From the NCBI GenBank assembly GCA_016839705.1, contig JAEOTR010000081.1, positions 1 through 41,153 on the forward strand: 41,153 nucleotides of DNA, written 5' to 3'. A program made the position numbers and the translations under genes. Shown here piece after piece: positions 29,565 through 33,088 of the stretch. This DNA comes from Promethearchaeota archaeon. GTDB taxonomy: Archaea; Asgardarchaeota; Lokiarchaeia; Sigyniarchaeales; SOKP01. A model generated the notes under the pieces. The model saw nothing but the letters and a program-made list of their open reading frames with translations, had not been told where the DNA came from and ran no database searches. The number at the start of each line of letters is the position of its first letter. Positions within the stretch are counted from its first letter, which is position 1.

Positions 29565-31289
29565 ATGAGTGAAATGAAAACCGAGGTATATATAAACAAG
29601 ATTATTGAAAACACGGGCTTAACGAGAAAGGAAATTCAAGATATGGTTGGAGACAAGAAGAATGAATTAAAAGGTTTAATATCTGAAGAGGGAGCATTAT
29701 TTATTATTGCCAGAGAGTTAGGTGTTGATGTAAAGGAGGAAAATAAAGATCTAATAAAGGATATCGAAATAAATATATCTGATATTACTCCTAATATGAA
29801 AAATATCGTTTTAGTAGGAAGGATTAAGGAAATTCATCGCGTAAACAAGTTTAATAAGAATGATGGTGGAGTTGGTTATGTGGGGTCTTTCTTATTACAT
29901 GATAAGACAGGAGATATTCGAATTGTATTATGGGATGACCAAGTAAGTATTTTTAATAACAACAATTTTGAAATAAATGAATTAGTTAAATTATTCAATG
30001 GCATTGCAAGGAAAGGGAGATACGATGAATTAGAAATACATGTAGGAAGATATGGAAAGATATTATTATCTCCGGATGATGTAGATTTTAAAAATTATCC
30101 CAAAATAAAATTTAAATTAACTAATATAAATGATATTAATTTAAGTCTAAACTCTATATCAATTGAAGGGAAGATAATTCAATTTACACCAATAAAAGAA
30201 TTTACAAAAAAAGATGGTGAACCAGGAAAAGTAGGATCTCTAACTCTATTAGATTCTACAGGATCTATAAGACTAACGTTTTGGAACGATGACGTTGAAA
30301 AAATTGAAAATTTAGAAATTGATGATGCTATAACAGTATCCAATCTCACTCCACGATTAAACACTTATGATTCTAAATCTATTGATTTGTACGCTAATAG
30401 AAGCTCGGTTGTTAAAAAGATATCAAAAAACATCCAAATAAAGGGAGAACTAGTACAGAAGATTGGAAATCTTCAAAATCATAAAGGTATTGTATCATTT
30501 AAAGGAAAAGTAACATCAGTTGATAATTTAAAAATAATTGAATCAAAATTAGGTGAAAAAATCTCCCTATTGGGATTTATCGTCAGTGATGATACAGATG
30601 GAATTAGAATTACATTATGGAGAGAAAAAGCAGAGGAATTTTCAGAAAAATTGTCAGTTGGCCAAGGACTACTGCTGAAAAACGTTATGGTAAAGTATAG
30701 CAACTTTTCGCAAAGAAATGAAATATCCTTAATAAACGAATCAAGTATTGAATTAAAAGAATTTGAAATTAAGAACCTAAAGACGATAGACTTGACGAAC
30801 GCCAACTCTCGCGCAAATTTTTCTGGAAATTATAATAAAATCGATTCTATAAATGCATCAACGAATATAGAAATTAAGGGTTTTATTGCAAGAGATCTTA
30901 ACAATATATCAATTTATGAGGCATGTACAAAGTGCTTCAAAAAAGTGGATAACTGTGTGTGTAATACAGCAAATGAAACAGAGTTTCGAATGATTGTCAA
31001 TCTTATAATTGATGATGGAACAGGTTCAATTAGAACAACATTTATAGGTGATATAGCAGAAAAGCTTATGATGGTAAAGACAGAAAAACTCGTCCAAATT
31101 AAGGAAACACCCGATTTTGATAAATTTATGGAGAAAAAGTCTTCTGAACTTTTAGGTAAAGATATAATCATTAAAGGAAAATCAAAATTCAGTGATTATT
31201 CAAACTCATATGAAATAATGTCTTATGATTTTAAATATCTAAATGTTGATGAAGAATTGGAAAGGGAAATAAGAAAGATTGAAACTTAA
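29565..31289 (+). CDS. Replication protein A large subunit (RPA1-like)
   Basis: N-terminal GLISEEGAL.IIA.ELGV domain, repeated D.TG.IR..(L/F)W OB folds, and a Zn finger (CTKC...C.C) in the C-terminal OB fold. Confidence 0.9.
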   Translation: MSEMKTEVYINKIIENTGLTRKEIQDMVGDKKNELKGLISEEGALFIIARELGVDVKEENKDLIKDIEINISDITPNMKNIVLVGRIKEIHRVNKFNKNDGGVGYVGSFLLHDKTGDIRIVLWDDQVSIFNNNNFEINELVKLFNGIARKGRYDELEIHVGRYGKILLSPDDVDFKNYPKIKFKLTNINDINLSLNSISIEGKIIQFTPIKEFTKKDGEPGKVGSLTLLDSTGSIRLTFWNDDVEKIENLEIDDAITVSNLTPRLNTYDSKSIDLYANRSSVVKKISKNIQIKGELVQKIGNLQNHKGIVSFKGKVTSVDNLKIIESKLGEKISLLGFIVSDDTDGIRITLWREKAEEFSEKLSVGQGLLLKNVMVKYSNFSQRNEISLINESSIELKEFEIKNLKTIDLTNANSRANFSGNYNKIDSINASTNIEIKGFIARDLNNISIYEACTKCFKKVDNCVCNTANETEFRMIVNLIIDDGTGSIRTTFIGDIAEKLMMVKTEKLVQIKETPDFDKFMEKKSSELLGKDIIIKGKSKFSDYSNSYEIMSYDFKYLNVDEELEREIRKIET

Positions 31290-31403: not shown

Positions 31404-31835
31404 TTAAGAAATTAGACAAATTTTACTAAATTTTTCAGGATTCTTAATGATATTAGTGTATTTTTCATGGATTATCTCAGGAGTCATGTTTGAGAGTTGT
31501 TGATTAAATGGCCAAACACCAATTAATACATCACCTAACTTTTTAACGTTGCCTATTAAATGTCCTTGTTTTTCTCCGTTTGATGTAAAAAGGATTACTA
31601 AATAATAATTATAACTAAATTTTGTCTCAACATTTCCCACAACTATAACTTCCTCAATATTTTGAAAACTGATAACCTTATCATTTTGTATGCTTAAATT
31701 TTTTAATTCTAGAATCAATTTTGCAGGAATAGTTAAGGGATTTTTTAAGTTTAAATCTTTAAAACTTAATGAAAGGTTCGTATTCTCAATTTGCTCAATT
31801 GCTTTAAATATTACTTTATAAATTATAGAATCCAT
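31404..31835 (-). CDS. Hypothetical protein
   Basis: 143-aa ORF with ATG start, downstream of aIF1. No family recognised. Confidence 0.65.
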   Translation of the reverse strand: MDSIIYKVIFKAIEQIENTNLSLSFKDLNLKNPLTIPAKLILELKNLSIQNDKVISFQNIEEVIVVGNVETKFSYNYYLVILFTSNGEKQGHLIGNVKKLGDVLIGVWPFNQQLSNMTPEIIHEKYTNIIKNPEKFSKICLIS

Positions 31836-31933: not shown

Positions 31934-32251
31934 CTATTGTTGGATAAGAATATTTTCTTCAGGAAATCCCAAATCAATTAATAGCTTTTTCATCTTAAAT
32001 CGATGATCTCCTTGAAGTTCAACTTCATTATCTCTCACAGTTCCACCAGAAGCACATTTTTTTTTTGCTTTTGTCAAAATATTTTTCAAATTTACATCAA
32101 AATTACCAATAAAAGAAATAACAGTAACAATCCGCCCCCATTTACGCCTATCGTTTGAGATTATTATTTGTTGTTCATCAGCACTTAAGCTATCACATAT
32201 ACAGAGCTCTTTTGGAAAACTACATAATGGACATATGTCGTCGTCTTTAAT
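31934..32251 (-). CDS. sui1: Translation initiation factor aIF1 (SUI1), apparent AUU start; absent from the ORF track
   Basis: IKDDDICPLCSFPKELCICDSLSADEQQIIISNDRRKWGRIVTVISFIGNFDVNLKNILTKAKKKCASGGTVRDNEVELQGDHRFKMKKLLIDLGFPEENILIQQ* (105 aa). It has a CxxC..P..LCxC Zn knuckle, an RRKWGR.VT loop, CASGGTV and ELQGDHR. Confidence 0.95.
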   Translation of the reverse strand: MKDDDICPLCSFPKELCICDSLSADEQQIIISNDRRKWGRIVTVISFIGNFDVNLKNILTKAKKKCASGGTVRDNEVELQGDHRFKMKKLLIDLGFPEENILIQQ

Positions 32252-32259
32252 GCTTTCTT

Positions 32260-32264
32260 ATCAC
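32260..32264 (-). promoter_or_regulatory. Shine-Dalgarno element (GTGAT) 8 nt upstream of the aIF1 ATT codon
   Basis: Complementary to the 16S 3' tail GAUCACCUCCU, which is visible at 41033-41043. Confidence 0.6.
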
Positions 32265-32560
32265 AACCTTCGTTATTCAAATTATTAATTAATAGAGTAC
32301 TAAACAATAATAGAATAAAATCTTATAAAAATCTTTTTCATTTTAGAAAATGACTCTATTCTTATTCAAAAAGATTTCTATATACCTATTTGTTTTTATA
32401 AAAATTAAAAAAATCTAATTGATTATTTGATTTATTTTTTTTATTATCTAATTCCTTCCATTTAAAAGAAAAGGCAATCAAAAAAGTATATAAAGTAAAA
32501 TTTTTATTATTTATAAATGAGCGTGTTCTTTATGTTAAAATAATTATGTAATTTACTATA

Positions 32561-33088
32561 ATGCAAAGTTCATGGATATTTAAAGTTATTGTCGCTGGTG
32601 CAGGTGGTGTGGGAAAAACAGCAATGATAACGCGTTATTGTACTGGAAAATTCCAAGAAGGTTATAAAATGACAATTGGAGCAGGATTTCACACCAAATC
32701 TGAGACGCTCGATACCGGAGAAGCCGTTAAAATGCAATTATGGGATTTTGCAGGTGAAAAACGATTCCGTGAACTCTTACCTGACTATTGTAAAGGTGCG
32801 AGTGGAGCGTTTATATGTTTTGATATTACAGATTATGATACGTTCAGAGAAATTCCAGAATGGCTTAAAATTATTCGTCAAAAAGCGGGTTTTATCCCAA
32901 TCATTCTGATGGGTATGAAATGGGACCTTCAAAATCATGAAGTCGATTTTGAAATTGCGAATAATTACGCCTTACAAGCAAAGTGTAATCAGTGTGTATT
33001 CAGTTCTTCAAAAAATAACATTAACATTAATGAATCATTTCGAGCTATGGGGAAATGGTTGATTTATTTTGCCTCTCAAACTGAATGA
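32561..33088 (+). CDS. Ras-superfamily small GTPase (Rab-like, Asgard type)
   Basis: G1 GAGGVGKT, G2 TIG, G3 WDFAGE, G4 variant MKWD, G5 SSK. No CaaX tail. Confidence 0.92.
   Translation: MQSSWIFKVIVAGAGGVGKTAMITRYCTGKFQEGYKMTIGAGFHTKSETLDTGEAVKMQLWDFAGEKRFRELLPDYCKGASGAFICFDITDYDTFREIPEWLKIIRQKAGFIPIILMGMKWDLQNHEVDFEIANNYALQAKCNQCVFSSSKNNININESFRAMGKWLIYFASQTE

Follow-up and report, generated by a model that had tools for sequence, protein, structure and literature searches.

The bacterial gene for initiation factor IF3, infC, has an AUU start codon and is translationally autorepressed, as summarised in PMC4705826. Eukaryotic eIF1 is likewise autoregulated, in this case via a poor context of its AUG (Ivanov et al., 2010, as cited in PMC6237735 and PMC3326321). 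For the characterised archaeal homologues, aIF1, a role in fidelity has been shown in vitro (PMC6237735, PMC4705826): reviews report that S. solfataricus 30S complexes accept mRNAs with AUG as well as AUU when aIF1 is missing, but only those with AUG when it is present (PMC4705826; PMC6237735), and P. abyssi aIF1 hinders the full accommodation of tRNAi until a proper codon is paired (PMC6237735). The factor also stimulates mRNA binding and the formation of initiation complexes in general (PMC6237735). Neither a non-AUG start nor self-regulation of archaeal aIF1 came up in the literature that we searched and read.

Here we consider the aIF1 gene of a Lokiarchaeon, which lies in a DNA stretch of 41,153 nucleotides (hereafter the window) and appears to begin at AUU. 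The likeness to infC is twofold: in both systems the gene of a start-proofreading factor has a Shine-Dalgarno site followed by an AUU start, and in both, stringency drops when the factor is scarce, which should increase the factor's own synthesis. IF3 and aIF1 have unrelated folds, however, and repression, demonstrated for infC, is a proposal for the Lokiarchaeal gene. A further difference is that the aIF1 start codon varies by lineage, being AUU, AUC or AUA here and CUG, GUG or UUG elsewhere. With eIF1, aIF1 shares homology, its position on the small subunit and its role, and both systems possess a conserved suboptimal initiation site on the factor's own mRNA. Eukaryotes nevertheless keep the AUG and weaken its Kozak context within a scanning mechanism, whereas the aIF1 codon is itself near-cognate and is placed by Shine-Dalgarno pairing. 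The protein resembles aIF1 of P. abyssi, S. solfataricus and M. jannaschii in family, zinc knuckle, basic loop and length. What sets it apart from other archaea is the start, for which 50 homologous non-Asgard loci (mostly Thermoplasmata, with Thermoprotei, Nitrososphaerota, Methanomethylicia and DPANN groups) have ATG in 48 cases and TTG in two.

The features of the locus are collected in Table 1. Within a stop-to-stop frame at 31934-32257 on the minus strand, the initial annotation had described an intact reading frame of 105 codons with all SUI1 motifs, and profile matches and motif inspection agree with this. The frame scores 64.7 bits against Pfam SUI1 (PF01253; cut-off 25.5, E = 1.1e-17) and 115 bits against the archaeal-type NCBIfam profile NF002096 (cut-off 98, E = 1.6e-33); the latter match covers profile positions 2 to 101 of 102, and aligns from the residue that precedes residue 4 of the ATT-started protein. 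The motifs CPLC...CIC, RRKWGR (basic loop 1), SGGT and ELQGDHR are all present, and their Cys and Gly columns do not vary among 24 aligned Asgard sequences. A Pfam search of the whole 3.36-Mb genome, which is 93% complete, returned this SUI1 gene and no second one. Given its family, the product is presumably the cell's 30S-binding initiation factor that discriminates against wrong starts. Its neighbours are a 143-aa open reading frame 98 nt downstream that has no Pfam match (31404-31835, minus strand), a divergently transcribed gene for a Ras-family small GTPase (32561-33088, plus strand) and a gene for an RPA-like protein with several OB folds (29565-31289, plus strand).

Table 1. Features of the aIF1 locus in the window, and aIF1 start codons by Asgard family
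Feature	Position in the window, or families	Strand	Basis or remark
BRE/TATA promoter (predicted): purine-rich BRE GAAAAAGA, then TATA box TTTTTATAA	32322..32339	-	block nearly invariant in alignment
Predicted transcription start: purine in conserved TTTTTAG	32300..32301	-	motif and ~26 nt from TATA centre
Predicted 5' leader, ~49 nt, AT-rich, unstructured	32252..32301	-	BRE/TATA and initiator reading
Shine-Dalgarno-like element AAGGTTGTGAT	32260..32270	-	GG and GTGAT pair with 16S 3' end around a two-base mismatch
In-frame stops TGA (32263-32261) and TAA (32260-32258), four and three codons before ATT	32258..32263	-	sequence
Probable AUU (ATT) initiation codon	32249..32251	-	invariant in congeners; codon periodicity begins here
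Second Ile codon ATA, rival start chosen by PGAP in some relatives	32234..32236	-	23 nt from GTGAT
N-terminal zinc knuckle C-x2-C-x6-C-x-C, codons 7-19	32195..32233	-	all four Cys invariant in 24 aligned Asgard aIF1
First in-frame ATG/GTG/TTG: TTG, codon 55 from ATT, inside SUI1 domain	32087..32089	-	
aIF1/SUI1 coding sequence, 105 codons from ATT	31937..32251	-	Pfam PF01253 and NCBIfam NF002096 matches
aIF1 stop codon TAG	31934..31936	-	
ATG aIF1 start	Asgard families f4, f8, most of f10, f13, f17, f18, f23, f25, f26, f30		
GTG or TTG aIF1 start	Asgard families f6, f15, f22, f29		
ATA aIF1 start	a Baldr-named family, an Odin-named family, f19		
CTG aIF1 start	Asgard family f9		

Where does translation of this frame begin? 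The minus strand reads A AGG TTG TGA TAA GAA AGC ATT AAA GAC GAC GAC ATA TGT CCA TTA TGT, and initiation at the first canonical codon downstream, the TTG, would cost the protein its zinc knuckle and its basic loop. On re-reading the sequence we could confirm what the initial annotation had stated about this region, namely the minus-strand reading, the two stops ahead of ATT, the first TTG at codon 55 and the lack of any in-frame ATG, GTG or TTG before the zinc knuckle; its proposal that AUU serves as the start is supported by conservation in relatives. Within Shine-Dalgarno range, ATT is the sole codon one base away from AUG, bar a poor AAG. All 39 species of the window's genus have ATT at the start position, and in none of the 63 main-copy loci from nine genera of the family does a canonical start occur in the interval from the closest in-frame stop upstream to the first Cys; together, these counts rule out a sequencing or assembly error as well as chance. 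Throughout the family the codon six positions before the first Cys is ATT, or ATC in three species of one genus. The upstream in-frame stops in relatives number from one to three and include all three kinds, with TAG just two codons before ATT in several species. By entropy across 70 distinct sequences, coding-type third-position variation with a period of three begins directly after ATT, at the codons for K-D-D-D/E, whereas the nine bases ahead of ATT show none of it.

On this comparative evidence a canonical start is shown to be unusable for the aIF1 gene, and AUU is the conserved, Shine-Dalgarno-served codon at which coding constraint begins. We therefore consider it very likely that the AUU at 32251-32249 is the aIF1 start. 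To judge from the aligned loci, the weak start is also not peculiar to this genome but family-wide. The thought that the gene is dead, or that an ATG was misread as ATT, draws on the missing canonical start and on nothing more; it is already refuted by the identical codon in dozens of independent assemblies, and a sole SUI1 gene with all motifs intact and under purifying selection speaks against it as well, so that its probability is negligible.

Alternatively, translation might begin at the second Ile codon to give M-CPLC..., a choice that PGAP makes in some relatives, whose annotated proteins of 99-101 aa open with MCPLC or MCAIC; ATA, too, is one base off AUG. Its distance from GTGAT, however, lies beyond the Shine-Dalgarno window of the genome, and the codon varies among congeners (ATT in 33, ATA in 4, ATC in 2) while the upstream ATT is fixed. 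Moreover, the four codons before it vary at their third positions as coding sequence does, and the NCBIfam profile already aligns three residues ahead of that Ile. Initiation there is thus improbable.

The upstream stops invite yet another reading, in which the frame is reached by recoding: by read-through of a stop, by a frameshift from an upstream start, or by a TTG-TGA start-stop element that feeds re-initiation. An in-frame TTG TGA does lie immediately upstream in most relatives, and certain ENA gene calls take its TGA as Trp (MWKK...). Against this, the stops ahead of ATT are of all three kinds and variable in number, TGA, TAG and TAA each terminate long open reading frames in the window's genome, and no Shine-Dalgarno sequence is found at a usable distance ahead of the TTG. 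Furthermore, the upstream element is conserved across genera without respect to frame or to the TTG: in two genera (g18 and g21) it falls out of the frame that it has elsewhere, and other genera have TCG, TAG or CCG in place of TTG. The element is thus conserved as an RNA signal rather than as a TTG-TGA mini-ORF. The start-stop mini-ORF was rejected on these grounds, and recoding in any of its forms is very improbable.

Which signal, then, would direct the ribosome to the AUU? The initial annotation had named GTGAT, 8 nt upstream of ATT, as a Shine-Dalgarno element, and this holds: GTGAT occupies 32264-32260, 8 nt separate it from ATT, and the element (GG..GTGAT) is complementary to the 16S 3' end of a same-genus genome, ...GGATCACCTCC. 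The tail was read from a 3' fragment in that genome (G022), since the assembly of the window's genome contains no 16S rRNA gene; none was found in another genome, G006, either. GTGAT spacers in the window's genome peak at 4-7 nt, which places the aIF1 spacer in range, on the long side. Only a minority of genes in this genome have Shine-Dalgarno motifs ahead of them, in agreement with a review's remark on a cultured Lokiarchaeon (PMC7531240).

Further upstream, about 70-90 nt from ATT, an GAAAAAGA-TTTTTATAAG block followed by a conserved TTTTTAG is nearly invariant in 27 aligned upstream regions from the window's family, while its flanks diverge. By archaeal promoter geometry we predict that this BRE/TATA block is the promoter. 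The 16 nt between the TATA box and the predicted transcription start (GATTTTATTCTATTAT) are also nearly invariant across several genera, and this unusually conserved promoter block (32307-32339, minus strand) could be a candidate binding site for a regulator. In a folding test the leader did not surpass its shuffled versions (z = +0.65), and RNAalifold predicted no pairs (0) for it across 15 relatives; a regulatory RNA fold in the aIF1 leader was rejected accordingly.

Is the weak start special to aIF1 in this genome? Both aIF1A genes and the genes for aIF2 alpha, beta and gamma have plausible ATG starts, and as far as the start codons of these genes go, the weak start is shown to be specific to aIF1 among the start-selection factor genes checked. 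The 201 Shine-Dalgarno-led starts of the genome are 69% ATG, 22% TTG and 8% GTG; the TTG and GTG genes, about 30% of these starts, are those that an aIF1 loop might also tune in the proposal of the initial annotation. Genome-wide, Shine-Dalgarno motifs show no enrichment ahead of in-frame ATT, ATA or ATC relative to control codons. We also compared 355 kb from two sister-genus genomes with the window's genome. Among 299 non-overlapping orthologue pairs scored in this way, by a test that is insensitive to short N-terminal extensions, four have, in both genomes, conserved coding sequence that clearly extends upstream of every canonical start: two aIF1 pairs, one pair of Topo VI-B-like genes and one of RNase P Pop5. 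A non-canonical start would thus be needed in about 1% of pairs, or in 2 of 299 once the two aIF1 pairs are set aside. With no Shine-Dalgarno enrichment before ATT and so small a share of orthologue pairs, AUU use as a common habit of the genome was rejected; near-cognate starts elsewhere appear to be present but rare, at about 1%.

The two other genes deserve a brief description. The Pop5 gene (G000:C49:49409-49750, L231, minus strand) appears to start at ATC behind AAGGGGGGA; its Pfam Rpp14/Pop5 domain extends from residue 14 of the open reading frame, its first canonical start comes only at codon 26, and the orthologue of the sister genus has GTC at the homologous position. The Topo VI-B-like gene (G000:C49:80422-83631, L230) carries some 18 conserved codons with synonymous changes ahead of its first ATG and probably starts at ATT. 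Its product of 1070 aa, in which a transducer domain and a weak HATPase match were recognised, is much longer than the usual Topo VI B.

Beyond the family, 282 of the phylum's 301 genomes yielded an aIF1 gene, and more than 150 loci from these and from relatives were inspected at the 5' end. Related genomes are not independent, and start types are given as counts, with no statistical test. The initial annotation had looked to 5' regions aligned across Asgard and other archaea for conserved weak starts, and such an alignment reveals ATT kept in the window's family and weak starts recurring in other Asgard families, namely f2, f9, f12, f14, f19 and f20 (Table 1 lists start types by family). In the sister family, ATG, TTG or GTG stands at the homologous position, cultured members appear to use UUG, and one genus has ATA with a TGA two codons upstream. 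Thirty Thor-named genomes from 16 genera (L254-L283) start aIF1 at GTG (15), CTG (14) or ATT (1) and never at ATG (0); where the start is CTG, an in-frame stop is often found two codons ahead of it. Some genomes of the window's family also possess an aIF1 paralogue in which 8 nt separate a perfect GGAGGTGA from an ATA or ATT; the window's genome has the main copy only. Such second paralogues (L070, L080-L084) are about 60-65% identical, and one further copy (L085) is broken by stops.

How might the weak start act on aIF1 synthesis? We envision a scenario whereby the single aIF1 gene is transcribed from the conserved BRE/TATA promoter into an mRNA whose leader measures about 49 nt, on which base pairs between AAGGUUGUGAU and the 16S 3' end would position the 30S subunit. 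Initiator Met-tRNA would then start on the AUU, 8 nt downstream of the Shine-Dalgarno sequence, to yield M-KDDDICPLC..., a protein of 105 aa. Because aIF1 blocks full accommodation of tRNAi on mismatched codons, a high level of the factor should lead to rejection of its own AUU start and a low level should permit it, which would amount to negative feedback. The behaviour of S. solfataricus and P. abyssi aIF1 suggests the same, in that an AUU anchored by a Shine-Dalgarno sequence should be used less as aIF1 rises. The net response to the aIF1 level is nevertheless uncertain, because aIF1 also aids mRNA binding generally. By analogy with these systems we regard it as plausible, at even odds or slightly below, that autoregulatory feedback through the AUU start of aIF1 exists. 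Taken as a whole, the Shine-Dalgarno-led AUU start combined with aIF1 feedback is in our view the best explanation of the locus, with a probability of roughly 0.5.

Conceivably, the AUU is the real start but merely sets a low and fixed output of aIF1, with no sensing of its level and no feedback. The Pop5 and Topo VI-B-like genes fit such a notion: they are unlinked to start-codon fidelity, yet AUC or AUU seems to be their start as well, so that near-cognate starts seem to occur without obvious fidelity logic. Related families, moreover, have GUG or UUG, codons that do no more than reduce output, and neither the shuffle test nor the RNAalifold comparison of 15 relatives found a regulatory RNA structure in the leader. 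On the other hand, a factor that discriminates against AUU should, through its level, affect every AUU start, and at least seven Asgard families have kept or re-invented a weak start specifically for aIF1 while the genes for aIF1A and the aIF2 subunits use ATG. We consider a fixed output rather unlikely, though worth keeping in mind.

If feedback through the weak start is real, it might extend well beyond the window's genus. We put forward, tentatively and with somewhat less confidence than for the single locus, that self-limitation of e/aIF1 by a weak start constitutes a real Asgard feedback loop that has arisen or been kept in several lineages and was not seen in the other archaea sampled. 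The lineages would comprise Lokiarchaeia with AUU, AUC or AUA, Baldr-like and Odin-like archaea and family f19 with AUA, and Thor-like archaea with CUG or GUG. Such a loop is not essential, because aIF1 starts at AUG in many Asgard families and in 48 of the 50 non-Asgard loci sampled. If it is real, control of stringency by the level of e/aIF1 predates or parallels the eukaryotic eIF1 loop. Should it work as envisioned, all three domains of life would have a start-codon proofreader that is self-limited by a weak start, and the present case would concern a direct homologue of eIF1 in the closest archaeal relatives of eukaryotes. Whether stringency homeostasis is older than eukaryotes thereby becomes a testable question.

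The unusual start has left its traces in the databases. The initial annotation had expected gene callers to miss or truncate the gene; this is the case for JGI, ENA and Logan calls, in which aIF1 is truncated to 65-90 aa, but not for NCBI PGAP, which starts a relative's coding sequence exactly on the homologous ATT and lists MKDDDICP... proteins of 105-107 aa in relatives. The AUU start is therefore already implicit in GenBank, albeit labelled 'stress response translation initiation inhibitor YciH'; the protein so named is the archaeal initiation factor. Some ENA calls (P0010, P0013) begin with MWKK..., that is TTG TGA AAA AAG with TGA taken as Trp, and are an artefact of an alternative genetic code chosen on short contigs. 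Surveys of Asgard translation factors that use JGI, ENA or Logan calls will mis-score aIF1, because these calls are truncated and one set reads TGA as Trp.

A few minor observations concern the locus and the initiation machinery. Inside the zinc-knuckle codons lies an out-of-frame mini-ORF, ATG TCC ATT ATG TAG (32220-32234, minus strand), which is too distant from the Shine-Dalgarno sequence to be served by it and whose 3' ATG-TAG pair is seen again in relatives, where it simply results from the codons xxA TGT AGT. ARAGORN detected 18 tRNAs only in the window's intron-rich genome, of which the single Met(CAU) looks like an elongator, and pattern searches of the genome for the anticodon arm of an initiator tRNA found nothing. 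The gene for aIF2 gamma (G000:C97:40386-42002) has an open frame of 539 codons, with the C-terminal domain from codon 451 and, at the N-terminus, an extra segment that contains a helix-hairpin-helix-like GIGKTTAEK motif.
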